From the IMG/VR virus record IMGVR_UViG_3300047550_003005, positions 1 to 54,387 of that record: a DNA stretch of 54,387 nucleotides, one strand, 5' to 3'. Below, one piece after another: positions 2,139 through 50,701 of this stretch (positions within the stretch are counted from its first letter, which is position 1; each line of letters starts with the position of its first letter). The position numbers were made by a program, and so were the translations under genes. Under the pieces are notes generated by a model, which worked only from the letters and a program-made list of their open reading frames with translations, had not been told where the DNA came from and searched no databases. The DNA is from a virus (taxonomy: Duplodnaviria; Caudoviricetes).

Positions 2139-2254
2139 TGAACAAACGCAAAGACTGGGGATCAGCCGTCCTGGCCCTCCTGCTGATCATGGGATGCAGC
2201 TTTTTCGGCACCCTGGCCGCAGGGGTCTTGCTTCTGCTGCTTTTCGCTGGATAA
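2135..2254 (+). CDS. Small membrane protein (39 aa)
   Basis: Hand translation MMNKRKDWGSAVLALLLIMGCSFFGTLAAGVLLLLLFAG; ATGA overlap and AGGAG RBS; below ORF-track cutoff. Confidence 0.6.
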   Translation: MMNKRKDWGSAVLALLLIMGCSFFGTLAAGVLLLLLFAG

Positions 2255-2457
2255 ATACCAGAACAGGGGTCATCCCGACCCCTGATTGATATGGAGATGA
2301 AGATGAATGTTGTTCAAAATCACAATGATCCTGTGGAACATAATGGCGCTGACCGCGACAATCGCGGGCCTGGGCTATTTCACGGCCAGCCTGATATGGA
2401 GCGGATATTGGCCCGCGCCATGAAGCTCTTTCTGCCCAACCAGAAGGAGGGCTGACC

Positions 2458-2694
2458 ATGGGTTTGCTGACCAAACACATTCCGCCAGCATACATCAATC
2501 GGCTGCTGAATAGCCCAAAGGCCCTGCGTTACAGCATCCCGCACCTGAAAGAGCGGGCCAAGCAAGACCTACAATGGGGCGATACCCTGGCCTACCAGAG
2601 AACCATGATCAGACTCACCATGGTGGAACAGGAAGTGGACCGATATGACTACATGCTCGAAAAATTGTTGGAGCAAGAACAAAAAAAGCAGTAG
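2458..2694 (+). CDS. Hypothetical protein
   Basis: AAGGAGG RBS upstream; coiled-coil-like C-terminus. Confidence 0.7.
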   Translation: MGLLTKHIPPAYINRLLNSPKALRYSIPHLKERAKQDLQWGDTLAYQRTMIRLTMVEQEVDRYDYMLEKLLEQEQKKQ

Positions 2695-2745
2695 GTTACC
2701 GCACCCTCCCGACTGTCCACGGAGAGGGCCTCCCAAAGACAACTA

Positions 2746-2790
2746 CCCCGGCGCTCCCTGCCATTCCCCAAAACAGCGCCGGGGGATTTT
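2746..2790 (+). terminator. Probable intrinsic terminator
   Basis: CCCCGGCGCT ... AGCGCCGGGG stem followed by GATTTT, just before next promoter. Confidence 0.5.
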
Positions 2791-2831
2791 CCCCGCAAAT
2801 ATAAAAAGTGGTTAAGTATCTAATTTAGGGG

Positions 2832-2882
2832 TTGTCGCAGTATGCGATAACATGCCATAAACATCTCACGGCAATGACGCCG
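2832..2882 (+). promoter_or_regulatory. Promoter module 1 (operator-like palindrome + leader hairpin)
   Basis: TTGTCGCAGTATGCGATAA near-palindrome, then CGGC-AATGAC-GCCG hairpin; related to 5491-5540 and 48999-49048. Confidence 0.65.
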
Positions 2883-2897
2883 ATGGAGATGACTCAG

Positions 2898-3176
2898 ATG
2901 CTTGATAACCTCACCCTCGCCGACCGCTTCCACACCCTGAACGAGCGCCTGAAGGAGCTTGAAGCCGAAGTGAAGTCCGTGCGCGACCAGATCGTTGCCA
3001 CCGGCCAGGAAAAGCTCTGCGGCGAATTCGCCAACGTGGTCGTCAGCCTCTCCGAGCGCAGCACCTTCGACGGCAAGCTGGCCCAGTCCTACCTGACCGC
3101 CGAGCAAATCGCCGCATGCACCAAAAAGAGCGTGATCACCACCGTGCGCGCCAAAGCCAAGACTGCGGAGGGCTGA
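2898..3176 (+). CDS. Hypothetical protein
   Basis: GGAG RBS before ATG 2898; strong C/G-ending codon bias. Confidence 0.75.
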   Translation: MLDNLTLADRFHTLNERLKELEAEVKSVRDQIVATGQEKLCGEFANVVVSLSERSTFDGKLAQSYLTAEQIAACTKKSVITTVRAKAKTAEG

Positions 3177-3179
3177 GAG

Positions 3180-3470
3180 ATGACCTGGAACGTCTATGAA
3201 GTGGCCGCCGATCACGAATTCCGCATCGGCGACAAAAATGTGGCCTACTTCCGTGTCCTGTCCACCGGCAGGCGCGGAGAAGACAAGGCCCGCGCCACCC
3301 TGGCCGCAGCAGCGCCAGAGCTTTTGGAAGCCCTAGAAATCCTCTGGACGCTGTGGGAAGCGCAGAAATTCACGGGCAATCCACCATCCCCCGAAGGGTG
3401 GAAATATATTTCAGAAAAATGCGAAAAAGCCGCAGCAATCATCGCCAAGGCAAAGGGAGAAACCCCATGA
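3180..3470 (+). CDS. Hypothetical phage protein (AAAPELLEAL type)
   Basis: LAAAAPELLEALE ... AAIIAKAKGE motif common in small phage proteins. Confidence 0.75.
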   Translation: MTWNVYEVAADHEFRIGDKNVAYFRVLSTGRRGEDKARATLAAAAPELLEALEILWTLWEAQKFTGNPPSPEGWKYISEKCEKAAAIIAKAKGETP

Positions 3471-3811
3471 ACAAGTCCAACAAAAAAGCGCGCCTTGGGT
3501 TCGCGGGTGATCCCCGCGTACCTTTCGCCTGGGCAGGCTGGAATGATGCCCGCGAAGGCAAGCCCATGGATTACTACCTCATAGACCGCGCACCCCACCC
3601 GGCATGCGCTGCTGCATACGAGACAGCCCGCTACCGTGTCATGGCGTTGCGCAAGGCCGGGCTGCCCATCCCAGCATGGAAAAGCATGAAGTCCGTACCG
3701 CCTATGATCCACAGCGCTTACACCTTGAGCAACAGCTTAAATAAAATGTCGCGGGATGAAGGCGCCGGATATTGGCCCATAGGCACTTCTGGCTGGAGGG
3801 AAGCAGCATGA
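3467..3811 (+). CDS. Hypothetical protein
   Basis: ATGA overlap, GGGAGA RBS. Confidence 0.7.
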   Translation: MNKSNKKARLGFAGDPRVPFAWAGWNDAREGKPMDYYLIDRAPHPACAAAYETARYRVMALRKAGLPIPAWKSMKSVPPMIHSAYTLSNSLNKMSRDEGAGYWPIGTSGWREAA

Positions 3812-4023
3812 AAGAGCCCCACCCCGCCGATGCCCTGACGGAAGCCCTGCTGGCCTACGCCAAGGCAAAAAATATGGGCCAGGATTATGTCGCAGGATAT
3901 CTCAACCATGTCCTGCGCCGGGTCGTGGATCGCCTCCCCGGCTATCACCGGAACATCGCCCTGGCCGATCTCAAAATGTCCCTACGCCTCACCGAAGATG
4001 CGTTAAAGGAAATTCAAAAATGA
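3808..4023 (+). CDS. Hypothetical protein
   Basis: ATGA overlap, GGAGG RBS. Confidence 0.7.
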   Translation: MKEPHPADALTEALLAYAKAKNMGQDYVAGYLNHVLRRVVDRLPGYHRNIALADLKMSLRLTEDALKEIQK

Positions 4024-4226
4024 TCACTACCCGGATCGACACCACCGCCAAAAACCTTGTCAGGCTGCTGGACGCCCTCGACCTGCACACCGAGGATTTC
4101 GCCCACATAGCGGGCGTACATCGCGCCACAGCATTCCGCTGGATCGGCGCGCAGAGCCCCGTACCCGTGTCAGTCATCCGCATGCTGGAGCTGATGCTGA
4201 AAGAGAAAAAGGAAAAAGCAGCATGA
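4020..4226 (+). CDS. Small helix-turn-helix DNA-binding protein
   Basis: TEDFAHIAGVHRATAFRWIGAQSPVP HTH pattern. Confidence 0.75.
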   Translation: MITTRIDTTAKNLVRLLDALDLHTEDFAHIAGVHRATAFRWIGAQSPVPVSVIRMLELMLKEKKEKAA

Positions 4227-4480: not shown

Positions 4481-4641
4481 TGACTACAGAACCAGAATGG
4501 GGCTATTGGCTGGATCAGCCGGGTGGCACATGGATCATGCTGCCCAAGCTGCCGCTGACCCGCGCAGGATACACGCAGCCACCCTTCACCGTCACCCGGC
4601 CTGACGGCAAGGTGCTGCATGTGGTGGAGCGCCAGCCGTGA
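4480..4641 (+). CDS. Small hypothetical protein (53 aa)
   Basis: Hand translation MTTEPEWGYWLDQPGGTWIMLPK...VVERQP; TAATG and GTGA overlaps exactly fill the gap. Confidence 0.65.
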   Translation: MTTEPEWGYWLDQPGGTWIMLPKLPLTRAGYTQPPFTVTRPDGKVLHVVERQP

Positions 4642-5357
4642 TCCCCAACATCGTTCATTTCATCTACCCGGTAAACAGCAAAACGCGCCCCTTCAGCAGC
4701 CTGAACATTCAGGCCGTGAAGCGGGCAGCCACAATCCAGAAGCCCGACACCATCCGCTTCTGGACCAACGCCAAGCCCGGCGACATCGCAGGATGGGGCG
4801 AGATCGCCAGCATGGTCGATCTGATCCCCACCATTATGCCCGAGCATGAATGGCCCCAATACCAGTCAGACACGCTGCGCCTGAACATCCTGTATGACCA
4901 GGGTGGCATCTACATGGACACCGACCTGCTGACGCTGCGCCCCATGCCGATGTTTGAAGACAGCCTGACCATCTCGTGGGAAAGCGAAAAGCGCGAATCA
5001 GTCTCAAACGCCCTGATGATCTCGGCCCCCAAAATGCCATTCATTGCAGAATGGATGCGCCGCCTTCCCCAGGCCCAAGGTTCATCCACCTGGGCCTATG
5101 GCGGTGTCGTGCTGCCCGCCGAAATGATGTTTGATCCCACCGTCGATATGGACCATGTGGTCAACATGCCCCCAGGCTTCTGCTGCCCCCTGGACCTCTC
5201 CAAGGCATGGCTGACCGAGCCTGAGCTGAAAGACCAAGCCCGGCAAAAGGTAGAAGACGCCGAGTCCTACGGCATCCACTGCTTTGAAACCTTCTGGCGC
5301 CACCGGCTGCCAGGATGGGAGCAGCGCGACTGCCTGCTGCGCGATCTGGCGATCTGA
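4638..5357 (+). CDS. DXD-motif glycosyltransferase (GT32 / Gly_transf_sug-like)
   Basis: IPNIVHFIY N-terminus, SDTLRLNILYDQGGIYMDTD, NALMIS, YGIHCF motifs. Confidence 0.85.
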   Translation: MIPNIVHFIYPVNSKTRPFSSLNIQAVKRAATIQKPDTIRFWTNAKPGDIAGWGEIASMVDLIPTIMPEHEWPQYQSDTLRLNILYDQGGIYMDTDLLTLRPMPMFEDSLTISWESEKRESVSNALMISAPKMPFIAEWMRRLPQAQGSSTWAYGGVVLPAEMMFDPTVDMDHVVNMPPGFCCPLDLSKAWLTEPELKDQARQKVEDAESYGIHCFETFWRHRLPGWEQRDCLLRDLAI

Positions 5358-5943: not shown

Positions 5944-6228
5944 ATGAGCATGCCGCGCCCTCACAGGATTGATTATTTTACTATCGTTGATGTGTTCCGC
6001 GACTTAGACTTCGAGCCCGTCCCCGAAGACACCTGGGAAGCAGGAGCCATGATGCGCAACATCTACACCGAAGTGGTCGATGAACCGCCAGCCCTGGAGC
6101 TGCGCCCAAAGACAAACGCCCCAGGCACACACTGCTTCGCCGTTTACCCGCCAGGATGGCGCGAGAAAGCCGAGGAAGTAGTGCGCAAGGTAGCCTCTCA
6201 CCGCCTGCGCCAGATGAGGTTGATCTGA
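5944..6228 (+). CDS. Hypothetical protein
   Basis: AGGAGG RBS before ATG 5944; TGATG overlap with terS. Confidence 0.7.
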   Translation: MSMPRPHRIDYFTIVDVFRDLDFEPVPEDTWEAGAMMRNIYTEVVDEPPALELRPKTNAPGTHCFAVYPPGWREKAEEVVRKVASHRLRQMRLI

Positions 6229-6788
6229 TGCCACGCCCCAAGAAGATACAGCCTGAAGCCGAAGCCGCGCCCGTATCCAAATACCGGCGCAAAGGCGTTG
6301 ACGCTCTCGGCAACCCGATCAAGCCGCAGCCTGTTGGCAGGCCGACATTGTACACCCCAGAGATTGCCCAGGAGATCGTTGACCGCCTGTTGAGCGGCGA
6401 AAGCTTGGTGCGCATCGCCGAAGATGAGCGGATGCCAAGCCGCGTGACCATATACCGATGGTTCGATGAATACCCAGATTTTGGTACAAAGTGCGCGCGG
6501 GGTCGCGAGGGGCTTGCCGACTATCTCGTTGATGAGATTGAGAAATTAGCCCGCAGCGCGACCAAAGACAACATCGAAGTGGTCAAGCTCCAGATCAGCG
6601 TGGCCCAGTGGCGGGCCATGAAGATGGCGCCCAGGCAATACGGCGACCGCCGCACAACTGAGCTGACCGGCAAGGATGGCGGCCCGATCCAGACCGAAGC
6701 CAAGGTCGCTATTGATGCCTCCAAGCTTGATCCTGACGCCCGTGAGGCCCTGCGCGCGGCAGCCCTGGCGGTTTTGGATAAGGGCTGA
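6228..6788 (+). CDS. terS: Terminase small subunit (Sf6 gp1-like)
   Basis: GRPTLYTPEIAQEIVDRLLSGESLVRIAEDERMPSRVTIYRW HTH; ELTGKDGGPIQ; upstream of terL. Confidence 0.9.
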   Translation: MPRPKKIQPEAEAAPVSKYRRKGVDALGNPIKPQPVGRPTLYTPEIAQEIVDRLLSGESLVRIAEDERMPSRVTIYRWFDEYPDFGTKCARGREGLADYLVDEIEKLARSATKDNIEVVKLQISVAQWRAMKMAPRQYGDRRTTELTGKDGGPIQTEAKVAIDASKLDPDAREALRAAALAVLDKG

Positions 6789-6791
6789 TCA

Positions 6792-8399
6792 GTGTCCCTG
6801 ATCCGGTTGAATGGGGGCGTCATCGGCGCCCAGGACATCTTGAACGAGCTTGACCGGGTTGAGTGTGAAGAGAACCTGTACGACTTCCTGATGAGCGGGT
6901 GGCAGTACATCGACCCCTCGCCCTTCACTCCTGGCTGGGTGATCGAGGCCGTTGCAGAGCATCTCCAGGCCGTCTGTGACGGCGAGATTAGGCGCCTGCT
7001 GGTGAACATCCCACCGCGCTGCTCCAAGTCTTCCTTGACCTCTGTAGCCTTCCCTGCGTGGGTCTGGGCGCAGCGCCATCGCACCCCCACCAGTGGCCCT
7101 GGCGTTCAATTCCTGCATGCATCCTATGCCCAGAGCCTGAGCCTTCGCGACAGCGTGAAGTGCCGCCGCCTGATCGAGTCGCCTTGGTATCAGCGCCTCT
7201 GGGGCGACCGCTTCAGCCTGACCGGCGACCAGAACACCAAGACCCGGTTTGACAACAGCGTGGGTGGCTCGCGCCTTTCCACCTCTGTGGGATCAGCGCT
7301 GACCGGCGAAGGCGGGTCAATCATCGTGGTGGATGATCCCAACGCTGCCCAGGAAGCCTTCAGCGAGGCAACCATTGAAGCCACCATTGAATGGTGGGAC
7401 GGCGCCCTCAGCACCCGCCTCAATGACCCCAAAACTGGGGCCTTCATCGTGATCCAGCAGCGTCTGTCCGAGGAAGACCTGACCGGCCACATCCTCTCCA
7501 AGGATGCCGACAACTGGACGCACCTGTGCCTGCCCATGCGGTATGAGCCTGACCGCAGCTTCGTCACCAGCATTGGCTGGCAAGACCCGCGTGAGGAAGC
7601 CGGTGAGCTTTTGTGGCCTGAGCGCTTTGGCGAGCCTGAAGTGGCCACCCTTGAAAAGCAGATGGGTCCATGGACCGCAGCCGGGCAGCTTCAGCAGCGC
7701 CCTGAGCCCAAGGGCGGCGGGATCATCAAACGCGACTGGTGGCAGCTTTGGGCCGAGGATGCCTACCCGGCCATGGACTATATCGTGGCCTCATTGGACA
7801 CGGCCTACACCACCAAGACCGAAAACGATTTCAGCGCCATGACCGTCTGGGGCGTGTTCTCCGGCGATGTCGTGGCCCAGGCCGCCAAGACCGAGGATGG
7901 CGTTGAGCGCAGCTACAGCCAGCAGCACCCGCGCGTGATGCTGATGAATGCCTGGGCCGAGCGCCTGGAGCTGCATGATCTGGTTGAGAAGGTGGCCGCC
8001 ACCTGCCGCCGCATGCGCGTGGATAAGCTGATCATCGAAAATAAGGCTGCCGGGCATTCCGTGGCCCAGGAGCTGCGCCGCCTGTTTGGGCATGAGGACT
8101 GGGGCGTTCAGCTTCTGGACCCCAAGGGTCAGGACAAGCTGGCGCGGCTGTATTCGGTTCAGCACCTCTTTGCCGAAGGCATGGTCTATGCCCCTGACCG
8201 ATCCTGGGCCGATCAGGTGATCACCCAGGTCGGCACCTTCCCCAAGGGCAAGAACGATGACCTTGTGGATACGGTGAGCCAAGCCATCAGGCACATGCGT
8301 GACCTGGGCCTGCTGACCCGTGGCCCCGAATGGACCGCTGCTGTGCAGGAGAGTATGCAGCATCAGGGCGCAGGCCCTGGGCCTTTATATCCTGTCTAA
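6792..8399 (+). CDS. terL: Terminase large subunit
   Basis: NIPPRCSKS (Walker A-like), IIVVDDP (Walker B), SLDTA and FPKGKNDDLVD nuclease motifs. Confidence 0.95.
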   Translation: MSLIRLNGGVIGAQDILNELDRVECEENLYDFLMSGWQYIDPSPFTPGWVIEAVAEHLQAVCDGEIRRLLVNIPPRCSKSSLTSVAFPAWVWAQRHRTPTSGPGVQFLHASYAQSLSLRDSVKCRRLIESPWYQRLWGDRFSLTGDQNTKTRFDNSVGGSRLSTSVGSALTGEGGSIIVVDDPNAAQEAFSEATIEATIEWWDGALSTRLNDPKTGAFIVIQQRLSEEDLTGHILSKDADNWTHLCLPMRYEPDRSFVTSIGWQDPREEAGELLWPERFGEPEVATLEKQMGPWTAAGQLQQRPEPKGGGIIKRDWWQLWAEDAYPAMDYIVASLDTAYTTKTENDFSAMTVWGVFSGDVVAQAAKTEDGVERSYSQQHPRVMLMNAWAERLELHDLVEKVAATCRRMRVDKLIIENKAAGHSVAQELRRLFGHEDWGVQLLDPKGQDKLARLYSVQHLFAEGMVYAPDRSWADQVITQVGTFPKGKNDDLVDTVSQAIRHMRDLGLLTRGPEWTAAVQESMQHQGAGPGPLYPV

Positions 8400-8453
8400 T
8401 CTGTTGCGACTGCGTGGCCACATGTGCAATATGGCCCGCGAGAGGGAGTGACC

Positions 8454-10790
8454 ATGCCACTTGTCCCTGGCCTTAGCCCGTCCATTCGTGAGCCCGCCCC
8501 CGAGGCGCCTGAGCTGCCGCCCGGTGAAGAGGTTGTGATCATGGAGGCCGATGAGGCCGCCGATCAGCCCCAGACCGATGACAGCGGCAACATCCTCTCC
8601 ATTGAGCATCCCGATGGCAGCATCACGGTGCGGATTGATGGCCAGCCCCTGGAGCCTGCCGGTGGCAAAAAAGAAACCGGCTGGTTTGATAACCTCGTTG
8701 ATCAAATCCCGCAGGCAGAGCTTTCACGCATTAGCGAAGACCTGTTGCGCGGCATCCGCGATGATCTGCAAAGCCGCAGCGAATGGATTGAAGATCGCGC
8801 CACCGGCTTGAAACTGCTTGGCCTGAAGATCGAAATCCCCAGCCTTGCTGGCGCTGCTGACGGTGCGCCGGTCGAAGGCATGTCGAAGGTGCGGCACCCG
8901 TTGCTGCTGGAAGCCGTGCTGCGCTTTCAGGCTAATGCGCGGTCTGAGCTGCTGCCGACCGATGGCCCGGTGAAAATCCGCAACGACGATAACGACCCCA
9001 GCCTGCAAGAAGATGAGCTGGCGAATGCATTGGAGCGCGACCTCAACCACTACCTGACGGCGGTGGCGACCGAGTATTACCCCGACACTGACCGCATGCT
9101 GCTGATGCTTGGCTTCGGCGGCTCTGCGTTCAAGAAGGTGTACTACTGCCCGCTGCGCAATCGTCCCGTTTCCGAAACGGTTGATGCCGATGATCTGATC
9201 GTGAATAACGGCGCGACTGATTTGCAGAACGCCAAGCGCATCACGCACCGCACGTTCCTGAAGCCCAGCGTGGTGAAGCGCCTGCAAATCTTGGGCGTGT
9301 ATCAAGACACTGATCTCAGCACACCAAACCCGCACAGCCTTGATAGCCTTCAGCGTGAAGAGAAGACGCAGGAAGGCATCTCGCCGGATGTCATGAACCC
9401 TGATGACCGGGATCGTGAAATCTATGAATGCTACTGCGAGCTGAACATTCAGGGCTTCGAGCATACCTACAAAGGCAAAGAGACTGGCCTGGAAATTCCG
9501 TATCGCGTGACCATTGATGCATCTTCGAAGAAGATACTTTCGGTGGTGCGCAACTATGACGAAGACACTGCCGAGCTTCCTGAAGCCCGCAGCAATTTCG
9601 TCAAGTACACCTTCATGCCCGGCTTTGGGTTTTACGATATTGGGCTGCTTCATATCCTTGGCAACACGACAAACGCGGTGACGGCTGCATGGCGCGAGCT
9701 TTTGGACGCTGGGATGTACGCAAACTTTCCGGGTTTCCTGTTCGCAGACGCAGGCGCGAGGCAAAACACAAACATCTTCCGTGTGCCTCCGGGCGGCGGC
9801 GCCCTGGTGAAGACCAATGGCATGCCGATCCAGCAGGCGATCATGCCGCTGCCGTACAAGGAGCCCAGCCAAGCCCTGATGGGGTTGGTGCAGAACATCG
9901 TTGAGACTGGGCAGCGCATTGGCGGCGTGAGCGAGATGATGGTTGGCGAGGGGCGCGCTGATGCGCCGGTTGGCACCACGCTGGCGATGATTGAACAGGC
10001 GCAGAAGATTCTGAATTCTGTCCATAAGCGCATGCATGCTGCCCAGGCGCAGGAATTCCAATTGCTGGCCGAATGCTTCCGCGAGAACCCTGAGAGCTTC
10101 TGGCAGCGCAAGCGCAAGAATGCCTATCCGTGGGATGAGCAGCGCTTCCTGCAAGCCCTGGACAATGCAGAGCTGGTGCCGCAGGCTGATCCCAACACCG
10201 CCAGCCACACGCAGCGCCTGATGAAGATCATGGCGCTGAAGCAGCTTCAGCAGGCGCAGCCGGGGCTGTACGACCCGATTGCGATTGATACGGCGGCCTT
10301 GCAGGCTATTGGCTGGAATAACCCTGAGCAATTCTTTGCGCCGCCTGACGCACAGGGCAAGCCGCCGCCTGAGCTGATGAAGGCGCAGGCCGAGCTTCAG
10401 ATCAGGAAGCAGGAAGCCGACATTAAGGGCATGGAAGCCCAGGCGCGGGCGCAGAAGATGCAGGCTGACACGGCGCTGGAGGCCCAGCAGTTTGAGGCCA
10501 ATCAGGCCATGCATGAGCAGCGCATGGGCTTGGATGTGTCTAAATTCCAAGTGCAGACTGGCCTTGAAGAGCGGGCCATGGGGGCAAAGACCGATGAAGC
10601 TATCGCCCGTGAACGCCTCCAGCTCATTGATCTGGCGCAGAACCTTGCAGTGCATCCAGAGAGCGCGCCGGTTGTGGCGCCGCTTGTGCGTCCTGCCTTC
10701 CAGGCTGTCACGGAGCGCGAGCTAGAGGAGAGGGCGCGGCGCGGTAATCTGCCGCCGCTGCCAGGGCTTGGGGGAGCGTTGCCGCAATGA
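8454..10790 (+). CDS. Portal protein (P22-like, long C-terminal coiled coil)
   Basis: Follows terL; HPLLLEAVLRFQA, GFYDIGLLH, APVGTTLAMIEQ motifs; Gln-rich helical tail; GAGGGAG RBS. Confidence 0.9.
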   Translation: MPLVPGLSPSIREPAPEAPELPPGEEVVIMEADEAADQPQTDDSGNILSIEHPDGSITVRIDGQPLEPAGGKKETGWFDNLVDQIPQAELSRISEDLLRGIRDDLQSRSEWIEDRATGLKLLGLKIEIPSLAGAADGAPVEGMSKVRHPLLLEAVLRFQANARSELLPTDGPVKIRNDDNDPSLQEDELANALERDLNHYLTAVATEYYPDTDRMLLMLGFGGSAFKKVYYCPLRNRPVSETVDADDLIVNNGATDLQNAKRITHRTFLKPSVVKRLQILGVYQDTDLSTPNPHSLDSLQREEKTQEGISPDVMNPDDRDREIYECYCELNIQGFEHTYKGKETGLEIPYRVTIDASSKKILSVVRNYDEDTAELPEARSNFVKYTFMPGFGFYDIGLLHILGNTTNAVTAAWRELLDAGMYANFPGFLFADAGARQNTNIFRVPPGGGALVKTNGMPIQQAIMPLPYKEPSQALMGLVQNIVETGQRIGGVSEMMVGEGRADAPVGTTLAMIEQAQKILNSVHKRMHAAQAQEFQLLAECFRENPESFWQRKRKNAYPWDEQRFLQALDNAELVPQADPNTASHTQRLMKIMALKQLQQAQPGLYDPIAIDTAALQAIGWNNPEQFFAPPDAQGKPPPELMKAQAELQIRKQEADIKGMEAQARAQKMQADTALEAQQFEANQAMHEQRMGLDVSKFQVQTGLEERAMGAKTDEAIARERLQLIDLAQNLAVHPESAPVVAPLVRPAFQAVTERELEERARRGNLPPLPGLGGALPQ

Positions 10791-13700
10791 ACCACGATCC
10801 GCGCAAGGCTATTCGTCAAGCCATGATGATTGCGCGGCGCGAGGTGACTGCGCCGAATAAGGCTTCAATTGGTGGTCAGCGGCATATGCTGGCTTACATC
10901 ACGCCTTATGAGGCAGAGCTTCTGATGCGGCGAGGTGGCTCTGGCCGCCTGACTGAATATGGTGTGCCTGCGTTTGATGATGGTAATGGCAATGGCCCTG
11001 GCGGTGGTCCTGGTAATGACTCCAATACAGACACTGCGATGTCTGATCCAAATACGCAAACAGCTACATCAGGAAATGAAGGCACTGGCGCGGGACCTAC
11101 AGGGGCTGGTGCTGGGGGTATTGGAGAGACTGGCCCTGACGAAACTGACGCCAATTTAAGTGGGCCTGTTGCCGCACCTGTGCCTACTGCGCCGACCGCT
11201 ACTGTGCCATTTGGCACTCCTCCTTTTGGCCAAGCGCCTTCAGCTTTAGGTCTGGGCCTTATTGGCGGTCTTGCCGGGCTTGGTTTTGGTGTGCCGGGTC
11301 TTGGTACTGCGGCAGCAGGGATTGGCGCGGCTATTGATGCCAACAACCTGAATGAGCAGCTTGGCATGATGGGCTTGGAACAAAATATTGATGCTCAGTT
11401 GGCCGCAGTAAATGCTATGACCATGGGCGCATTTGGCAGGGGTGCAGCGGAACAATTTGGGCAAACGCTGGGCTTTGATGCGCTTGCAGAAGCGCCGATG
11501 TCTGCGTTTAGCCCGCCACAAGACCTTCCTGGCCCTCCTGCTGATACGAGTAACCCGCCCCCTTATTATGTTGATGTGAAGGCTCCGAAACAGCCGGTTA
11601 TGCAAGCGGATGAAGAAGCGCAACGTGATTTGCTTGCCGCGCGCAATCCGATGCAGCAGCCTTTGATGTATGCTGATGGCGGTGCTGCAACAGGTGGCCG
11701 CATGGACCCGCGCATGCTGCCGGGCATTCATGTGCGTGTTCCTCATGATCGTGTTGGCCGTGCTGACGGTGGCCCGGTGCAGCAGCCGCAGGATGAGGAT
11801 GTGCGGATTGATGACCCGATCATTGGGTATCATGGCACCCCGCATGAATTTGAGCGCTTTGATCCGAGCAAGATTGGCACGGGTGAAGGCGAGCAAATGT
11901 ATGGGCATGGGCTGTATTTTGGCGAACAAGAAAATACTGCAAAATATTACAAAGATAGAATTTCAACTGAAGCTGGCAAGGCTAGGTTACTTGATGCCCG
12001 TGGCAACGAAATTGCCTTAAGTAATCCTGCAAATGCAGAATTTAAAAAATTTCTAAAAACTTATAGTGGTGGTTTTAGGTGGGGTGATGTTAATCACCAT
12101 GTTGAGGCACTAAAAAGAAAATCAGCGACTTTAGATGACGACATCAATTCTATTGATGAAATGCTTCGCACCCATAATTGGGCAGGCATTGAAGACACAC
12201 AAAAATATTGGCAAAACGAATTAGAAAAAAAGATACAGCAAAAACCTACAATTTTAGAATTCACAAATGCTTTAGAGAAAGCTCAAAGGATAGAGCCTAT
12301 TGGTCATATGTATGAAGTGGCTATCCATGCGCGTCCTGAAGAGTTTATGGATTGGGATAAACCGTTAAGCCAGCAAAACCAGCGTGTTCGTGATTTTTTC
12401 AAGCAGCGCGGATTTGATAAGGATTTCACAACTCCGCGCGGTTATACTCAAATTGGGGGTGATGTTTATATTGATGCAGCCGTCCGTGCTTCAGGCTCAA
12501 AAAGCGGTTTTGCCCTTCCTGCCGACAGAAAAAAGCTATCAGAAGATATGTTGGCAGCGGGCATTCCTGGCATCAAATACCTTGATGCTGGCAGCCGTGA
12601 TGCTGGTCAAGGCACCCGCAACTACGTTGTGTTTCATCCCAAGCACCTGGAAATCAAGCGCCGCTATGCCGATGGCGGTGAGATCACGCCGCCGCGCGAT
12701 CTGGGGGCTGATCCCACGGTGCAGCAGGCGCTGCGCCTATCCAGCCGGGTCACTGATAAGCGCACCCCGCAGCTTCAGGATGCCGCTGATCTGATTGCTG
12801 CTGGTCAGATGGGGCCGGAAGAATATCATGCCCTGGTGGGCCAGTATAAGCCTGTGCAGCCCTATACCAACGTGCCACCGATGGCTTCAGAGGCTGACTT
12901 GTTCCGTGGCTTGAGCGAAGATAAGCACGGCAAGGTTGGAGCAGAAAAGAATATTCCAGAAGGCCATCCGGTTGGTTTGCGGCTTGATATCCCCGCCTAT
13001 GATCGGCATGGCGTCTGGGCGCCTACCATCCATGATGGGCATGGCGATAAAGCCAAAGCAATTGCCCACGCACCCTTTGCCCATGTTTCTGATCCCGTCT
13101 TCAGCGTGTCCGAAAACAAGGCGCTGAATGTTGCTAGAGGCACAGCCAAATCGCCATTTGCCAAGATCAATGGCTTTTGGAAGCCAACATCTCCCGAAGA
13201 TGCCCAGGCGATGGCGCAGGAATATCTATACCATCCTGAATGGCGACAGGTCGGCATGGACCCGGAGCGGCATAGCTTCTTCTATGACCGTGAAACCCGC
13301 CAGCCGATTGTAAGCGCGGATGAGGCTTTGCAGGTAGGCCCGTTGGTGCTGGCGAAGAACCCTAAATACGGCAAGGTGACTGATTACAAGTACGCCATTG
13401 GCGGCGGTGTTGATGATGATCCCACGGTGCAGCAAGCGCTTTCCTATACCAGGAAAGTGACCCCGATGGGGTTTTACAGTCATGCTGCTGATGTTGCGGC
13501 CAATCTGCCGCAGCAAAAAGGCACACCGCAGCAGATGCTTTCAATGCTGACTGCGCGTGGCGTTAAGCCGGATGAAATCAATAATTCCGGCGCGCAAGAC
13601 ACATTTGGAAATCAAAAGACCGTGGCCAAGCAGGATTTAGCCGCGCATTTCCAGCAAAACATGCCTGACATTCAGGAACAGAAACGCATACCCAAGCCGT

Positions 13701-16129
13701 CATGGGAGCGTTTAGAGGCATCAAATCATGACCCCGAAATTTATGCGGCTGCTGCTTTTCCAGCTAAATTTTTTGAATGGACAATGGCTTATATGGAGGA
13801 TAAAAATCCAGAAGATATTGATTATCGTGAAATATTACTTCATTCGCAGCCCCATTGGAATGAAAATGCAATAAATGATTGGCTTGAAACTCAAGCTTAC
13901 AATAAAGCGTCTGATTTTGGCGCCATAAGCTCAACAGACGATTGGAATAATCTTCCTGAAAATGAAAAAAATAAATTCACAAAGGACGCAGAACAAAGAC
14001 TTAATTATCTAAAAACTACACTAGACTTCAAAAATAGGAGCGAAAGAAGTGCGCTTTTAGACCCGGATAAAAATTTCTTCAGCACCCATTGGGCTGTGCC
14101 AAATGTAATTGGCCACATTCGCATGCATGACAGGGATGGTGAGGATACGCTGCACGTTGAAGAATTGCAGAGTGATTGGGGGCAGGCCAAGCGTAATGGT
14201 GAGGATGTTCCTGAGCATCCGTTGATCAACAACACAAACACCTGGACCGATCTTTTGCTGAAGCGCGTTTTGCGTGAGGCGGCTCGTCGTGGATATAAGC
14301 GCATTGCTTGGACACCAGGGCAGGAGCAGGCGGAAAGGTACGACCTGAGCCAGCAAATTCATCAATTAAATTATGATCCAGAAGATAAAGTGCTTTCCTA
14401 TTATCATAAGGATCGCGGATGGGATGATCTTCCATATCGCGTTAATCCTGATGAAATACAAAAATATGTTGGGAAAGAGATTGCTAAAAATCTGCTTTCA
14501 CAACCACCAAGCCCATTGAATGGAAGCCATTCCCTAGAAATAAACACGCAAGTCGGCGGCGAAGGCATGAGGGCCTATTACGACAAAATCGTTCCCGCGC
14601 GCATGACGGAAATAACAAAAAAGCTTGGCGCCCCCGTTAAGGTAGAGCCGTACAAAATAAATACCCGAGATGGCGAAAAAACATTACATTCAATTGTGGT
14701 GACGCCGGAGCTAAAATCTGCGGTGTTGAAAGGAATGCCAGTGTACAAAGATGGCGGCAGAATTGGCTACGCTGATGGCGGCATGCCGGGCGATGATCCC
14801 ACGGTGCAGCGGGCGCTGGACATTACGCGGCAGGCGCAACCTGAGCAGTCTCCCATTCCTGGGGCCATGCAGGTGGCTCAGACGGTGGCAGCTCCAGGCC
14901 GCAGGCGCTTTGAGATCGCCCCGGCGCGTGTAGCGCCGATGACAATTGATCAGAAGGACCGCGATCTTCCAGAGGAAGGCAGCGTCACCATCAAACGCCT
15001 CACCGATGCCTTTAAGAAGGCGATTGATAACCACCTGTCACTGCCGCCTGCGCAGCAGATCGCTAATGCCCGGCAGGCTGAAAACAATGTGGCGCAATAT
15101 GTAGGGCGCGGGAAAACCGGCAAGATCAATTCCGTTCTGACCGCCAACAAGAAGCTGATGAAGGCGCAGACGGCTGGGGAAGATGACACCCCACTGATGC
15201 TGCCTGATGGCCGTACACTTGAGATGACCGGGCTGGCGTTGATGCCAGATTACCGGGAAGGCCAGTTTAAGATGTGCGGCAACTCTGATGTCTGCCGTGA
15301 TTCTTGTCTGGGTAAAGAATCAGGACAGTATCGGTATGATCCGACTGAAACCCAAGCCCAGATGCCGATGACGCAAGAAGAATTGGCTGCTGCTGGTGGC
15401 AAGCCCCGCATGGCTGCTTTTCGCCGCACTCAGGCGATGATGCGTGATCCTGAAAGCTTTGCCGTCTATCTGCATGAATTGATTGATGGTGCGAAGATCA
15501 TGGCGGAAAAGCGCGGCGCGCATCTTGGGGTGCGCCTCAATGTGCTTTCTGATTTGTCGCCAAAGATCATGGAGCCGATTATCAAGGCCCATCCAGAAGT
15601 TTCTTTCTATGACTACACCAAGATGAATTATGACCCGGTGGCGCCAAACCACCATTATACCTATTCATCCACGGGGTTGTCGCAGCCGGATCGTGGGGTT
15701 GAAAACCCCTACTCAAACTGGCGCAAGATGCGGGATCGTTTGGATCAAGGGCATAATGTCGCGATGGCATTTGCTCATGGGAAAAGTGATGCCTTCCCAG
15801 AGTATTTGCATGATGAAGAAACTGGGAAGAAGTATCGTGTTGTTTCTGGTGATGAGCATGACTTCCGCCCCTTGGACATGGTGCCAGAGGGGGAAGACGG
15901 CGTGATCATTGCGCTGAAGAACATGGCTGCCAGCAATTCCGAATACAAATATGAGAATGCCGCGCGCAATTCTCACGGTTTTTTTGTTCACCATGAGCCC
16001 GATTTTGAGCGCACCCCCGAAGGGACTTTTTCCCGAAATGAAAATGGGAATCGCATTTCCCGCAATAAAGTTTATACTGTTCGTACCCAACCTATGAAGC
16101 GTGGCGCCGTGCGCCAGCAGGAGAATTGA
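10787..16129 (+). CDS. Large polyvalent virion/cargo protein: ART-PolyVal-like ADP-ribosyltransferase + two unknown domains + GP88-like domain
   Basis: YHGT...FD...GTGEG..YGHGLYF...NYVVF (ART); HVEELQSDW domain; Cx5Cx3C...RLNVLSD...FYDYTK (GP88-like); domains separated by [YR]ADGG-type linkers. Confidence 0.8.
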   Translation: MNHDPRKAIRQAMMIARREVTAPNKASIGGQRHMLAYITPYEAELLMRRGGSGRLTEYGVPAFDDGNGNGPGGGPGNDSNTDTAMSDPNTQTATSGNEGTGAGPTGAGAGGIGETGPDETDANLSGPVAAPVPTAPTATVPFGTPPFGQAPSALGLGLIGGLAGLGFGVPGLGTAAAGIGAAIDANNLNEQLGMMGLEQNIDAQLAAVNAMTMGAFGRGAAEQFGQTLGFDALAEAPMSAFSPPQDLPGPPADTSNPPPYYVDVKAPKQPVMQADEEAQRDLLAARNPMQQPLMYADGGAATGGRMDPRMLPGIHVRVPHDRVGRADGGPVQQPQDEDVRIDDPIIGYHGTPHEFERFDPSKIGTGEGEQMYGHGLYFGEQENTAKYYKDRISTEAGKARLLDARGNEIALSNPANAEFKKFLKTYSGGFRWGDVNHHVEALKRKSATLDDDINSIDEMLRTHNWAGIEDTQKYWQNELEKKIQQKPTILEFTNALEKAQRIEPIGHMYEVAIHARPEEFMDWDKPLSQQNQRVRDFFKQRGFDKDFTTPRGYTQIGGDVYIDAAVRASGSKSGFALPADRKKLSEDMLAAGIPGIKYLDAGSRDAGQGTRNYVVFHPKHLEIKRRYADGGEITPPRDLGADPTVQQALRLSSRVTDKRTPQLQDAADLIAAGQMGPEEYHALVGQYKPVQPYTNVPPMASEADLFRGLSEDKHGKVGAEKNIPEGHPVGLRLDIPAYDRHGVWAPTIHDGHGDKAKAIAHAPFAHVSDPVFSVSENKALNVARGTAKSPFAKINGFWKPTSPEDAQAMAQEYLYHPEWRQVGMDPERHSFFYDRETRQPIVSADEALQVGPLVLAKNPKYGKVTDYKYAIGGGVDDDPTVQQALSYTRKVTPMGFYSHAADVAANLPQQKGTPQQMLSMLTARGVKPDEINNSGAQDTFGNQKTVAKQDLAAHFQQNMPDIQEQKRIPKPSWERLEASNHDPEIYAAAAFPAKFFEWTMAYMEDKNPEDIDYREILLHSQPHWNENAINDWLETQAYNKASDFGAISSTDDWNNLPENEKNKFTKDAEQRLNYLKTTLDFKNRSERSALLDPDKNFFSTHWAVPNVIGHIRMHDRDGEDTLHVEELQSDWGQAKRNGEDVPEHPLINNTNTWTDLLLKRVLREAARRGYKRIAWTPGQEQAERYDLSQQIHQLNYDPEDKVLSYYHKDRGWDDLPYRVNPDEIQKYVGKEIAKNLLSQPPSPLNGSHSLEINTQVGGEGMRAYYDKIVPARMTEITKKLGAPVKVEPYKINTRDGEKTLHSIVVTPELKSAVLKGMPVYKDGGRIGYADGGMPGDDPTVQRALDITRQAQPEQSPIPGAMQVAQTVAAPGRRRFEIAPARVAPMTIDQKDRDLPEEGSVTIKRLTDAFKKAIDNHLSLPPAQQIANARQAENNVAQYVGRGKTGKINSVLTANKKLMKAQTAGEDDTPLMLPDGRTLEMTGLALMPDYREGQFKMCGNSDVCRDSCLGKESGQYRYDPTETQAQMPMTQEELAAAGGKPRMAAFRRTQAMMRDPESFAVYLHELIDGAKIMAEKRGAHLGVRLNVLSDLSPKIMEPIIKAHPEVSFYDYTKMNYDPVAPNHHYTYSSTGLSQPDRGVENPYSNWRKMRDRLDQGHNVAMAFAHGKSDAFPEYLHDEETGKKYRVVSGDEHDFRPLDMVPEGEDGVIIALKNMAASNSEYKYENAARNSHGFFVHHEPDFERTPEGTFSRNENGNRISRNKVYTVRTQPMKRGAVRQQEN
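12709..14817 (+). repeat. Three dispersed 24-bp repeats encoding DPTVQ[Q/R]AL
   Basis: TGATCCCACGGTGCAGCrrGCGCT at 12709-12732, 13417-13440, 14794-14817. Confidence 0.9.
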
Positions 16130-16130
16130 G

Positions 16131-16391
16131 ATGAAGAAGCCGCCGCCGATCAATCAGCTTCACCCTGAAGATCACATTCAGCAGTTTCACAATGCCCATA
16201 TGTTTGAAGATAATGGGGATCACCCCACCGCATTGGGGTCTGTGCTGCGTCATGGCCATTTGCTGGCTTCTGGCGGCACGGTGACATCCCCTGTTGTAGA
16301 TCGGGCTTTGAAGAAGACCGCACCAGACCGGCCTATGGTTGCCTTGGCCGACCTCTTCCAAAGGCAACTGCGGGGACGCCCGCCCTCCTAG
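16131..16391 (+). CDS. Small hypothetical protein with LASGG + PVVDRAL motif
   Basis: AGGAGA RBS; contains the same linker pattern as the polyvalent protein. Confidence 0.65.
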
Positions 16392-16404: not shown

Positions 16405-18486
16405 ATGAGTGAAACCAGCGCAAAGTCCATCAGGGCAGCACGGGAGGCCAAGGCAAAGCGCTTGGGCTCTGCGGGCGATCCGAAGCAGAAGGTGGATGCT
16501 TCCACCTGGACGCCGCCTGAGATGATGAACACGAATGCCAAGACCGGGCTTCGGCCTGTGTCCCGGCGCGCGTTCAAGCGTGGCGGCAAGGTGGGCATGG
16601 AGGCTGAAGGCTCCTGCGGCCCTACCCGAGCTGACCGCAAGCCGCGCAAGAGCGGCGGCGAGGCCAAGGCTTGGATGGCTGCCAAGATTAACCGTGATGT
16701 GAAGGAAGCCAATGCAGAGCTTGGCAAGCCGCATGTCGGGGGTATGAAGAAGGGTGGCCGGGCGAAGCGTCAGACTGGTGGCATGCTGCCGGAAGGTGCG
16801 CGCCAGGGCATTCAGCGCACTTCTGCCTTGATGGCGCGTGATGCCGCTGATGAGATGGCCCGCCGCCAGCTTCAGCGTGAAAATCCGCCACCGCCGCCCC
16901 CGTCTGAGCGTGAAGCGCCGCTTGATAACCGTTCAACGCGCGAATTGATGGACCGCATGCAGGACGGCATGAAGAAGGGTGGCCGCGCCAAGAAGCAGAT
17001 GGGTGGCATATCCGGTGATCCGCGCCAGGGCGCCGCTGCGATGATGCAGAAGGCCGCTGCCATGGGTAACGTGCCTGCTGACCGCATGGCCTTCAGCCGC
17101 CTTCAGAAAGGCCGCGCTGCCACGATGGCGGGGCTGAAGAAGGGCGGTAAGGTCAGCCACCAGGAGTGGGAGCATTCCAAGGCTGATTTGAAGCAGGACA
17201 AGAAGCTGGCCAAAAAGCATGGCATGAGCATGGAGCAGTGGGAGGAATCCGCTCTTGATGCGAAGCATGACAAGCAGCAATCCACCGAAGGACTGAAGAA
17301 GGGTGGCCGGATTGCGAAGCGGGGCGGCGGCGAGCTTTCTGTAACAACGCCATCCTCTTCTGGTCTGTCTGCATCGCGCCCCCGGTACACGATTGCGCCT
17401 CGTGTCCCTGGCCCTCGCGCTGCCATGGACCCGCGCGTTTTGGCTGGTGAAGTCCTTGTTTTGGGCATGCAGCCATCTGCGGCCAATGCTGGCGAACAAG
17501 AGGCATTGCGGGACTATCTGCGCACCGCGACTTTGCCTGATTACAGTGAACAGGCTGCCGCTGCGCCGCGTTTAAGCCGTGGTTCTGAGCCTTTTTATGC
17601 TGAGGATGCGGCAGGCGGGCAGTATTACAATCCCAGCCCACGGGCTTCATACGCTGAAGAAATGGCAGCGGCGGCTCCTGCGCCTCGCCCGCGCCCGGCA
17701 CCTCGGGCTGCTGCACCTCAAGCTGATGCTGCCAGCAGGCAGAGCGAGCTTGAGAAAATTGCGATGGGCGCTGTTTTGAGCGACATGATGAAGGGCGGCT
17801 ATGAACAGCCTGAGCGCGGGTTCTTTGACCGCCTTGGCCTGCGCCGCACCTATGAGACTGGTGAAGGCCGCCCCAGCACCGGCAGCCTGTCTGGTGATCT
17901 TCGCGAATTGGGTCGCACCCTTGGCTTCAAGAAGGGCGGCAAGGTGATGGAAGGCAACTACACGGGCGGCACCCGCCCGACTGGTGGCCGGATTGCGAAG
18001 AAGGGCGGTGGTCGCGCCAAGGGCAAGACCAACATCATCATCTCGATCAATCCTGGCGCTGGCGCTGCTGGTGGCCCAGGCATGATGCCTCCGGGCAACT
18101 TGCCGCCGGGTGCTGGTGCGCGTCCTGGCGCTGGTGGTTTGCCGGTGCCGGTTGCTGGCCCTCCTGGGGCCGGTGCGCCGCCTCCGATGCCGATGCCTGT
18201 TCCTGTGCCTATGCCGATGGGCGCAGGCGCTGGCGGGCCTCCTATGCCGCCTCCTGGCGCGATGCCGCGCAAGGCCGGTGGCCGTGCGTATCGTTCCTAT
18301 AAGGACATGGATGCGGGCGCTGGTAGTGGTCTGGGGCGGTTGGAGAAGACCGAAATCCAAGAACACAAGCGCGGTGAGCGTAAGGCCGGTGGCCGCACCT
18401 ACCGTTCTTACAAAGATATGGATGCCGGTGCTGGCAGCGGGCTTGGGCGGTTAGAGAAAACCGAAATCCAAGCGCGCAAGAGGTGA
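16405..18486 (+). CDS. Low-complexity basic virion-associated protein with repeated x-K-K-G-G motifs
   Basis: AGGAG RBS; more than 12 motifs (FKRGG, MKKGG, LKKGG, RKAGG...); Pro/Gly tract; duplicated C-terminal 31-mer. Confidence 0.8.
18268..18471 (+). repeat. Duplicated 93-bp unit ([31 protein letters not shown] x2)
   Basis: 18268-18360 and 18379-18471; 30/31 aa identical, many synonymous changes. Confidence 0.9.
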
Positions 18487-18823: not shown

Positions 18824-19216
18824 ATGCCGTTTATGATTATGGAACACGACAAAGACCCAAAGCAGAAATTGCTTGATGAAATCGGCGATATCTCTGCCTT
18901 TGACATTTTCAACAATCAAATCCTGGTCGCGGTCTATATCCGCCCCAACAAAACCAAGTCCGGCATCTATCTTAGCGATCAATCGCGTGAAGAAGACAAG
19001 GTGCAAGGCAAGGTTGGGCTTGTGGTGAAGAAAGGCCCGGCTGCTTTTGTTGATGAAACCAGTGAATGGTTCAAAGACATCTCGGTTGAGGTGAATGATT
19101 GGGTTGTTTTCCGGCCATCTGATGGCTGGAGCATCACGGTCAACAATGTCCTGTGCCGGATCATTGATGACACGGCAGTGCGGGGCAAGGTTGATGTCCC
19201 AGATCGCGTTTGGTGA
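18824..19216 (+). CDS. groES: Co-chaperonin GroES-like protein
   Basis: ILV...KTKSGIYL (mobile loop), GLVVKKGP, VEVNDWVVF, IIDD. Confidence 0.85.
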   Translation: MPFMIMEHDKDPKQKLLDEIGDISAFDIFNNQILVAVYIRPNKTKSGIYLSDQSREEDKVQGKVGLVVKKGPAAFVDETSEWFKDISVEVNDWVVFRPSDGWSITVNNVLCRIIDDTAVRGKVDVPDRVW

Positions 19217-19227
19217 GGTGAAAAATC

Positions 19228-20139
19228 ATGTCTGAAACTGAAAAAGAGATCGAAATCGACTTTGATGCAGTAGAAAAAGCTGCAAAAGAGCCTGAAATCA
19301 AGATTGAGGAGGCGAAAGAAGCGCCTCCAGCCGAAATTTCTCCTGAAGATGGCATTGAAACGCTGAAAAAACGCTTTGAAGAGGAGCGTTTGGCGCGGAT
19401 TGAGGCAGAAAGGAGGGCTGAAACGGCTGCGCGTATGGCCCATGAAGCCCGTGGGCAGGTGGATGAAGGCAATTTGCAGCTTGTAACCAGCGCAATTGAC
19501 ACGCTGAAGCGCGAAACCGACATCCTGAAAGCCAATTTGCGGGCTGCAATGGCTACCGGAGACTATTCTGCTGCGGCAGATGCTCAGGAAGCCATGGCGG
19601 ATGCCAAGGCCAAGCTGCTTCAGCTTGAAAATGGCCGCGCAGCCTTGCAGGAGCAGGCCAAAAACCCGCGAATTCATCCACAGCAAATCCCGGCTTACGA
19701 TCCTGTGGAAACGCTGGCTTCCCAGCTCTCCCCCAGGTCTGCTGCGTGGGTTCGCGCCCATCCTGAGTTTGCCCGCAATGAGCGGCTGACCCAGAAGATG
19801 GTTGCGGCGCACAATCTGGTCACGGCGGATGGCGTACAACCGGATACCGATGAGTATTTTGAGTCGGTGGAGCGTATCCTGGGGGTGCAGGCCCCTGCGG
19901 CCTCTGTGGCTGCCGCTGAGGCCCCTATGTCTGCTGCCTCGGCGCCTACCCAGCGTCGATCTTCCCCGGCTGCTGCGCCCGTCAGCAGGTCTGGGACAGG
20001 CACTGGCGGCGGCAGCCCCAATGTGGTGCGGCTTTCTGCCCAAGAGCGTGAAATGGCCCAGATGATGGGCATGACTGCTGAAGAGTATGCGCGCAACAAG
20101 CTTGCCCTGATCAAAGACGGCAAGCTGACCAAGCATTGA
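19228..20139 (+). CDS. Probable capsid scaffolding protein
   Basis: Acidic coiled coil; C-terminal VRLSAQEREMAQMMGMTAEEYARNK; upstream of capsid genes. Confidence 0.75.
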   Translation: MSETEKEIEIDFDAVEKAAKEPEIKIEEAKEAPPAEISPEDGIETLKKRFEEERLARIEAERRAETAARMAHEARGQVDEGNLQLVTSAIDTLKRETDILKANLRAAMATGDYSAAADAQEAMADAKAKLLQLENGRAALQEQAKNPRIHPQQIPAYDPVETLASQLSPRSAAWVRAHPEFARNERLTQKMVAAHNLVTADGVQPDTDEYFESVERILGVQAPAASVAAAEAPMSAASAPTQRRSSPAAAPVSRSGTGTGGGSPNVVRLSAQEREMAQMMGMTAEEYARNKLALIKDGKLTKH

Positions 20140-50651: not shown

Positions 50652-50701
50652 TCCCGAAATGCGGTGCAGCGCTTTCTGCACATGTGAAAACGGAGAATAC
50701 G

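Follow-up and report, generated by a model that had tools for sequence, protein, structure and literature searches.

A phage cargo gene that appears to exchange its cassettes by crossover at a uniform junction encoding a conserved header peptide

Introduction

How does a phage gene come to hold the same short stretch of DNA three times, in a single reading frame and each time ahead of a domain unrelated to the others, and is it the DNA or the encoded peptide that matters? This question is raised by the IMG/VR virus record IMGVR_UViG_3300047550_003005 (Duplodnaviria; Caudoviricetes), which is referred to here as the window (54,387 bases; completeness estimate ~95%), and specifically by an open reading frame (ORF) of 1780 amino acids (aa) directly 3′ of its portal gene, at 10787-16129 on the + strand according to the ORF list and its translation. 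A preliminary description of this DNA saw in the gene, called the cargo gene below, a cassette array with a 24-bp repeat at its joints, and took the repeat to be both a recombination handle and the code for an N-terminal tag on each cassette. It also had the gene begin at 11669; the ORF begins at 10787, and 11669 is the first of its YADGG motifs. The reading preferred here, at a probability of roughly 0.8, is that the gene encodes a cargo polyprotein that exchanges its cassettes by crossover at uniform junction DNA, and that the header peptide encoded at these junctions is functional.

Cassettes and shared linkers

The cargo gene encodes an N-terminal part and four cassettes that are unrelated to one another (best pairwise BLASTP expectation value (E) 0.16) and that differ in G+C content (GC), which is 0.44 in the ART-like cassette, 0.45 in D3, 0.54 in the GP88 cassette and 0.56 in D2 (window 0.556); in both respects the preliminary description is borne out. 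All features of the locus lie on the + strand. The gene opens with a conserved N-terminal anchor (aa 1-76, MNHDPRKAIRQAMMIARR...; 10787-11014), whose first 53 nucleotides (nt) are common to all relatives and whose first ~228 nt are common to the NtA and NtB lineages, and continues with a variable region rich in Gly, Ala and Pro (11015-11668), in which a Gly-zipper-like hydrophobic stretch is read from the translation and of which at least four variants (NtA to NtD) exist among the relatives. A slot-1 linker (11669-11773; repeat families D1 and D4), made of YADGG, AATGGRMDPRMLPG... and a degenerate copy of the repeat encoding RADGGPVQQPQ, leads to the ART-like cassette (11774-12661) with its AT-rich insert (GC 0.37 around 11950-12400); a GG..GRMDPR.LPG junction also precedes the ART-like cassettes of L005, L012, L015, L017 and P0008. 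Linker 1 (12665-12733) joins YADGGEITPPRDLGA to the header DPTVQQAL and is followed by cassette D2 (12734-13390), which has a weak likeness to L5 gp82 and phrog_586; linker 2 (13391-13441) joins YAIGGGVDD to the same header and is followed by D3 (13442-14743), an unnamed polyvalent-protein domain; and linker 3 (14744-14818), with YKDGGRIGYADGGMPGD and the header DPTVQRAL, leads to a terminal GP88 cassette that has its own stop codon (14819-16129; Pfam match at 15143-15883).

Each of the three numbered linkers holds an exact copy of the 17-mer TGATCCCACGGTGCAGC (12709-12725, 13417-13433 and 14794-14810), all on the + strand and in the frame of the one ORF; shuffled sequences give an expectation of 0.02 matches, and none of 100 shuffles gave three. 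Beyond the 17-mer, similarity among the copies reaches over 37 nt (81% identity). Another conserved word, TATGC[CT]GATGGCGG, encodes YADGG and occurs at 11669, 12665 and 14768, and the degenerate fourth copy of the repeat, ahead of the ART core (11761-11789), is 66-72% identical to the other three; no further header copies were found in the window. A junction is thus made up of a glycine run (usually YADGG; YAIGGG before D3), a short variable spacer and the header itself, which has 10-13 residues and the pattern DPTVQxAL-x-[IV]-T-R.

The codons of the repeat are minor ones in this phage (CCC 17% of Pro, ACG 19-26% of Thr, GCG 27-31% of Ala), and under its codon usage three copies of independent origin would have matching codons at D, P, T, V, Q and A with a probability of ~7e-6. 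Because minor codons agree to this extent, the copies share DNA ancestry beyond any constraint on the peptide, and the earlier claim that the linkers are identical down to synonymous positions stands. An unbiased subset, consisting of 10 linkers from the window and four close loci (L004-L007) recovered independently of the DNA word, has ACG, GTG, CAG and GCG each in 10/10, CCC in 9/10 and GAT in 8/10, and four further linkers that fall outside the search pattern keep GTG CAG in 4/4 and ACG in 3/4. To judge from these sequences, the informative identity is that among paralogous copies standing before unrelated cassettes.

Relatives and module orders

The four close loci come from a protein-pattern scan of viral contigs. 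Degenerate DNA-word scans gave 15 viral and 14 metagenome stretches (several contigs are present twice), among which one viral and five metagenomic ones proved to be unrelated genes. Searching with aa 1-80 brought up 16 proteins of 1072-1780 aa. Eight loci (L020, L024, L028/L035, L032, L036, L037, L038 and L039) were rejected as relatives, being unrelated cellular or viral genes; in them the 23-nt degenerate pattern likewise reads, in frame, DPTVQ[QR]AL, which, for a short peptide with common GC-rich codons, appears to be chance or homoplasy. A scan of genome contigs for the pattern gave 3 matches, all of them in unrelated cellular genes, with no prophage and no clue to the host. There was no blastn match of the cargo gene to 50,697 phage records, and tblastn of the whole cargo protein returned 135 records, of which 124 are mycobacteriophage GP88 matches, with no full-length relative among those examined.

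Mapping 21 reference modules onto 36 sequences (34 distinct, 24 of those full-length) yielded 22 module orders among the 24 distinct full-length proteins, with zero violations of order; that is, no pair of modules is seen both ways round. D3 is preceded by any of six modules and D5 by any of five. The grammar runs from an N-terminal anchor (NtA-NtD) through an optional slot 1 and a header-led middle to either a terminal cassette plus tail or GP88. Specifically, slot 1 is taken by cassettes without a DPTVQ header (ART-like, D7, D12, D13, D14, D17), the middle by one to three header-led cassettes per gene (D2, D3, D5, D10, D11), and the end by D6, D8, D9, D15 or D16, each followed by the conserved tail, or alternatively by GP88. 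Two orders, NtA-D2-D3-D5-D6 and NtB-ART-D3-D6, were found twice as non-identical, separately assembled sequences (L004 and P0019; L033 and P0012). Such a collinear arrangement fits crossovers that join a prefix to a suffix, unlike free shuffling.

Two unusual arrangements were also seen. In P0021 slot 1 is empty, the ART core being absent between two ADGG motifs (..IHLRSDHRYADGGEIMPQRDLGADPTVQ..), and the sequence looks as if ART had been deleted by a crossover between two YADGG words. In L062 (12459-18077; portal 68% identical), a single ORF of 1873 aa holds two D3 copies, each preceded by GGSVDDD...ALALT (repeated 5-mers).

Breakpoints of homology

The window and L004 are homologous over gene positions 1-901 and 1917-4031: homology halts at the first YADGG, restarts 7 nt before a header and ends at the third header, beyond which the GP88 cassette of the window and the D5 of L004 are unrelated. 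When 21 genes were compared all against all, 146 of the 305 distinct interior ends of high-scoring segment pairs (HSPs) fell within -60 to +30 nt of a header start, a zone that makes up 5.1% of gene length, and in the cargo part alone 121 of 175 ends fell in the linker zone. Measured from the header start, left ends lie between 0 and -12 nt and right ends between +22 and +25 nt. Joints of this kind are also present in Logan contigs of two other studies (X3, X4), at 11687>14763 and 14793>12709 (17 nt shared); one run also has joints 12727>13436 and 13440>14763, and loose contig ends right after repeats run into other cassettes. Depth gaps in runs X3-X5 were considered as evidence and discounted, since the data are contigs.

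Close relatives thus gain, lose and swap cassettes, in frame, without any change of order and in several independent data sets, with homology ending at the edges of the repeat, and to this extent the 24-bp repeat does behave as the recombination handle that the preliminary description made of it. It is not the sole handle, as YADGG, the spacer, the N-terminal region and the interiors of D3 and ART have crossovers too, nor is it a handle at the DNA level only, as the peptide is conserved with different codons at 65-70% portal identity and in the tail as well. Alignment of relatives, which had been proposed as a check, places domain gain and loss mostly at linkers, with a collinear order and some breakpoints elsewhere.

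The header peptide in the wider clade

A scan based on the portal produced at least 599 matching stretches; the best 80 were retained and 75 new loci analysed. Where portal identity is at least 85%, the strict header is present in 6 of 8 loci (the exceptions being L046, with none in 2.6 kb, and L047, without downstream DNA), and where it is 78% or less, in 0 of 67. A loose header, namely a glycine run plus [VI][VQ]xALx[LIV][TS], is present in distant lineages (65-70% portal identity). Between cassettes, three loci (L066, L073, L078) share GYAEGGDVENNPVVQ[RK]ALSLTSG and then continue with three different sequences, a loose header stands before D3 in L113 and between cassettes in L050-54 and L058, and near the C-terminus GGSVVDxALxLT...RGRP occurs in at least 13 loci of 65-71% portal identity. 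Header codons vary by lineage (V GTG/GTC/GTA; A GCG/GCT/GCC; L CTG/CTC/CTT), and the Asp-Pro of the header is replaced in other lineages (NPVVQ, DAGVQ, GSVVD), for which reason self-cleavage at Asp-Pro was dropped as a candidate function. Since the peptide is conserved with different codons across distant lineages, it would appear to be under selection and to be older than the DNA word; on this comparison, the header peptide is judged to be conserved for its own sake and the uniformity of its DNA to be lineage-specific.

Mechanism and alternative explanations

As the cassettes are unrelated, the junctions are the only homology they share. Homologous crossover, either between co-infecting relatives or unequally within one genome, would link one gene's prefix in frame to another's suffix, and crossovers on 24-60 nt of junction homology would yield many cargo sets while the order stays collinear. 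Plausible catalysts would be a gp2.5-like protein for single-stranded-DNA binding and annealing (50684-51307, + strand; phrog_112, E 6.8e-44), an endonuclease VII-like protein (51354-51806) and a RuvC-like resolvase (1677-2138). The header would most likely be a recognition element for the packaging, docking or processing of each module. Judged from the sequence comparisons, the recombination reading is well supported.

Several points weigh against it. The relatives are all metagenome contigs, and recombination is read from their comparison. Most loci were found by the DNA word itself, and their first linker therefore matches by construction; furthermore, the relatives stand close to one another (their portal genes have a synonymous codon identity of 0.80-0.89, with L018 at 0.67), and the DNA identity of orthologous linkers is therefore partly plain descent. 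The HSP ends are not independent events, and a binomial P value calculated from them is thus no true probability. The remaining 54 of the 175 cargo-part ends lie at two D3 patches, the ART insert and a deletion of D5; the D5 deletion, in L026 and L033, has its joint in the spacer, away from the header, and further ends fall in the variable N-terminal region. As for a reader of the header, no protease was found in the window ORFs scanned, which covered the small ORFs only partly, and no binding partner was found. Finally, that the cargo protein is probably carried in the virion is drawn from the position of the gene and the polyvalent-protein literature.

Some of these points would be expected if selection were only a filter, that is, if exchange occurred anywhere, only in-frame joints in flexible linkers were viable, and the identity of linker DNA were a passive residue of duplication or descent: the closeness of the relatives, the joints outside the header (the D5 deletion, the D3 patches) and the older header copies (DDVVRQAL, DPEVVQQAL, GTVVDQAL), whose codons have drifted. 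Such an explanation is unlikely, given that paralogous copies before unrelated cassettes agree in minor codons, that the ends of homology concentrate precisely on the borders of the 24-mer, that a joint in an independent contig shares the full 17 nt and that junction DNA is the sole homology between unrelated cassettes. Mosaics might also be created by the assembly of metagenomes, as chimeras at the shared linkers of coexisting strains, and indeed the extended linkers share up to ~60 nt, more than small assembly k-mers, and the contigs of the source run break at repeats. As a general explanation this is very improbable, because two module orders recur in non-identical, separate assemblies and because the contigs of two further studies contain joints spanned by 31 nt or more to either side; each cassette-linker-cassette adjacency would in any case still require real molecules, and the ORFs are all open across 1000-1800 codons. 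A shufflon- or integron-like site-specific system acting at the 24-mer, which short and sharply conserved repeats flanking the cassettes might suggest, can hardly be at work where the repeats are direct and in frame, crossover points are spread over YADGG, spacer and header, the module order is never inverted or permuted and neither an integrase nor an invertase was found among the ORFs scanned.

Within the preferred reading of cassette exchange by crossover at the junctions, the function of the header peptide may be envisaged in different ways. A protease could cut at the glycine run or header and release each cassette with the header as an N-terminal tag, as the preliminary description had proposed. 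Glycine runs do flank every cassette, the GG that follows D3 hardly varies among 47 diverse D3 proteins, the linkers are modelled as disordered and a single anonymous, stand-alone D3 protein of 531 aa begins with a header (MNDPTVDKAL..); the retrieved text of Iyer et al. (2017, PMC5512222) argues that polyvalent proteins need processing. This proposal is nevertheless doubtful, as the header also stands ~25 residues from the C-terminus, where a cut frees only a peptide, as Asp-Pro is not conserved in other lineages, and as no MPTase or other peptidase matched in the cargo proteins (Pfam families, in P0001 and six relatives) or in the window ORFs scanned. A more far-reaching idea, put forward tentatively, is that glycine run and header form a portable loading-and-exchange unit: the head would read the peptide, and pack and deliver any domain behind it, and the DNA would be kept uniform so that co-infecting phages can trade cargo in frame. 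The reader of the header might then be the portal, the core or a protease.

Domain assignments and the C-terminal tail

The GP88 match (PF17338, aa 1453-1699) passes the Pfam gathering threshold with 50.9 bits (cut-off 24.4); the cassette is 27-28% identical to its mycobacteriophage matches and is also terminal in L025 and P0017. The ART-PolyVal match (aa 344-444) has 28.2 bits and stays below its cut-off of 31.2, and a related slot-1 cassette, the D12 of L016, is a canonical ART-PolyVal with 81.4 bits. For D2 the matches have E 0.06 (Pfam) and 1.8e-4 (phrog_586); L004, P0009, P0016 and P0019 carry this cassette and most relatives are without it. There was no match to the MuF domain (SPP1 gp7) in Pfam or PHROGs, and sequence searches of PDB with the cargo protein, with the KKGG protein described below and with the ORF at 19228-20139 gave nothing usable.

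D3 appears, from these searches, to be a common and widespread phage cargo domain without a name. It has relatives in 9470 clusters at E<=1e-3; there was no Pfam match in 8 relatives and no PDB fold match at E<=1e-3, and partial, weak GNAT-like fold matches (probability 0.6-0.7, template-modelling score at most 0.34) were not used. The 26 matches in BFVD are all large proteins of uncultured phages, some of them named GP88, LPD or ART-PolyVal, and only 2 records of cultured phages were found by tblastn. An AlphaFold (AF2) model from a 47-sequence alignment has a mean predicted local distance difference test score (pLDDT) of 87.4 and a predicted template-modelling score of 0.84; within it, D3 is modelled at pLDDT >90 and the flanking linkers at <50, the header forms a helix at residues 20-27 (pLDDT ~47-60) and a second helix lies at the next header. 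The D3 of MW202675 (portal 68% identical) opens a separate gene without a header; the header is therefore not part of the D3 fold. D3 is itself mosaic, with patches around aa 964-990 and 1190-1256 that are replaced or extended in L007, L010, L026 and P0022, and it contains an AT-rich stretch (GC 0.34 at 13750-14049).

All relatives other than those bearing GP88 end in a conserved tail of the form ..GG-x-[VI]V[DE]xALR[LM].. In the window the tail is encoded by an 86-aa ORF of its own (16131-16391, + strand) just after the GP88 stop, with its ATG one base after the TGA and GGAG 7 nt before the ATG; the tail of L004 is 79% identical to it over 42 aa (tblastn, E 7e-17), and L025 likewise has a tail ORF 3′ of GP88. 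As the tail is retained even when it is uncoupled, it may work as a separate element, which suggests that in GP88-bearing phages it could act in trans as a separate 86-aa protein.

The next gene (16405-18486, + strand) encodes, according to its translation, a low-complexity protein with at least seven repeated motifs of the [MLF]KKGG type and two near-identical repeats at its C-terminus. Its N-terminus resembles that of the cargo protein (KAIRQAMMIARR), as judged by eye only, and it had no match in Pfam, PHROG or PDB. Homologues of this KKGG protein sit after the cargo gene in L043-L045, and it is a possible partner of the cargo protein or may be co-packaged.

Genomic context

The genes TerS (6156-6788) and TerL (6792-8399) lie upstream of the portal gene (8424-10790), which matches SU10_portal (PF23899). 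Because the window also has two paralogous adaptor genes of SU10 type (24742-25437 and 30660-31379; 39 and 66.7 bits) and, downstream of the cargo gene, a 1598-aa SLT-bearing protein, the phage is taken on its gene content to be SU10-like and short-tailed (a podovirus); its habitat, judged from the sequencing runs that contain it, is fresh water. Other genes noted are a Cpn10 (GroES)-like ORF within the head-gene block (18824-19216; 33.3 bits, cut-off 21.1) and two glycosyltransferase-like ORFs (4638-5357 and 28051-29628), one with a DXD sugar-binding region (39.5 bits) and the other matching phrog_13126 (beta-1,4-glycosyltransferase, E 1e-98). In the NtB lineage (L005 3969-4550, also L006 and L023) an unannotated stop-to-stop frame of ~205 codons ends beside the start of the cargo gene; its counterpart in the window is an overlapping stop and start.

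Comparison with known systems

According to the retrieved text of Iyer et al. (2017, PMC5512222), a polyvalent protein unites between two and 15 unrelated domains in a single polypeptide from a phage or conjugative element. The cargo protein is like them in being a giant, multi-domain protein of a virus record (an N-terminal anchor and four dissimilar cassettes) and in being encoded among late or virion genes, after TerS, TerL and portal. It also has candidate domains of ART-PolyVal and other conflict types, the ART match of the window being the sub-threshold one given above. An in-built MPTase, which the same text proposes for the processing of polyvalent proteins, was not found in the cargo protein; it is frequent in the family and not obligatory. 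That text has the word 'linker' 0 times and raises cassette recombination as a mere possibility for one kinase locus, whereas here the junction is defined, the modules follow a positional grammar, both termini have conserved anchors and exchange is documented at the population level. No published account of this junction was found in the literature searched on polyvalent-protein linkers and shuffling or on capsid-targeting sequences.

Polymorphic toxins provide another parallel. VENN and similar pre-toxin motifs act as recombination points. As in the cargo gene, variable modules swapped by recombination are attached to a constant part that serves trafficking, and a short conserved motif marks the boundary and may also be a processing site. 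The retrieved text of Zhang et al. (2012, PMC3482391) describes both pre-toxin domains and cassette recombination in such toxins. They differ in having a single C-terminal tip, whereas the cargo protein has several cassettes in series, and in being secretion substrates, whereas the carrier here is a phage gene beside the portal gene. No immunity gene or orphan cassettes were seen in the window, where GP88 is followed by the tail ORF and then the low-complexity protein, and the cargo protein differs from MuF polymorphic toxins in lacking a MuF match.

In the T-even gp38/gp37 adhesin, glycine-rich conserved motifs lie between variable segments and exchanges occur within or near these motifs (retrieved text of Trojet et al. 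2011, PMC3157838, citing Tetart 1996, 1998). Short glycine-rich conserved motifs at exchange points are likewise found at the junctions of the cargo gene. The gp38 motifs form the structural core of one domain whose loops are swapped, whereas the cargo junctions are stretches, modelled as disordered, between whole unrelated domains. The internal proteins of T4 and the ejection proteins of phiKZ and SPN3US have N-terminal capsid-targeting tags or propeptides, on separate genes and with a known head protease. By analogy, the short peptide before each cargo might direct that cargo into the capsid and then be cleaved off by a head protease; the header differs in being internal, repeated and also C-terminal, and in that no protease was found in the ORFs scanned. 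In the SU10 paper neither a protease nor a scaffold is mentioned, and the ejection proteins gp20-24 are not the genes after the portal. From shufflon and integron systems the cargo gene differs in that no dedicated recombinase was found in the window ORFs scanned, which included only part of the small ORFs, and that breakpoints are spread across the linker.

Implications

Polyvalent proteins are presumed to be the phage products that host defences encounter first, and the turnover of their domain sets is the question on which this locus bears. The cargo gene is an unusually well-populated variation on the polyvalent-protein theme, and its lineage is a dense natural experiment in which one junction joins at least 17 types of cargo cassette and nearly every sampled phage differs. 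The locus illustrates how selection on a peptide can operate alongside homogenisation of the DNA that encodes it, and it draws attention to D3 as a very common cargo domain that is without a family name. The short peptide and the two terminal anchors are candidate signals for packaging or processing, and could help to find cargo proteins in uncultured phages. If the loading-and-exchange unit proposed above is true, it would amount to a system, evolved for exchanging cassettes of injected effectors, inside one virion gene, with a logic like that of integrons or polymorphic toxins.

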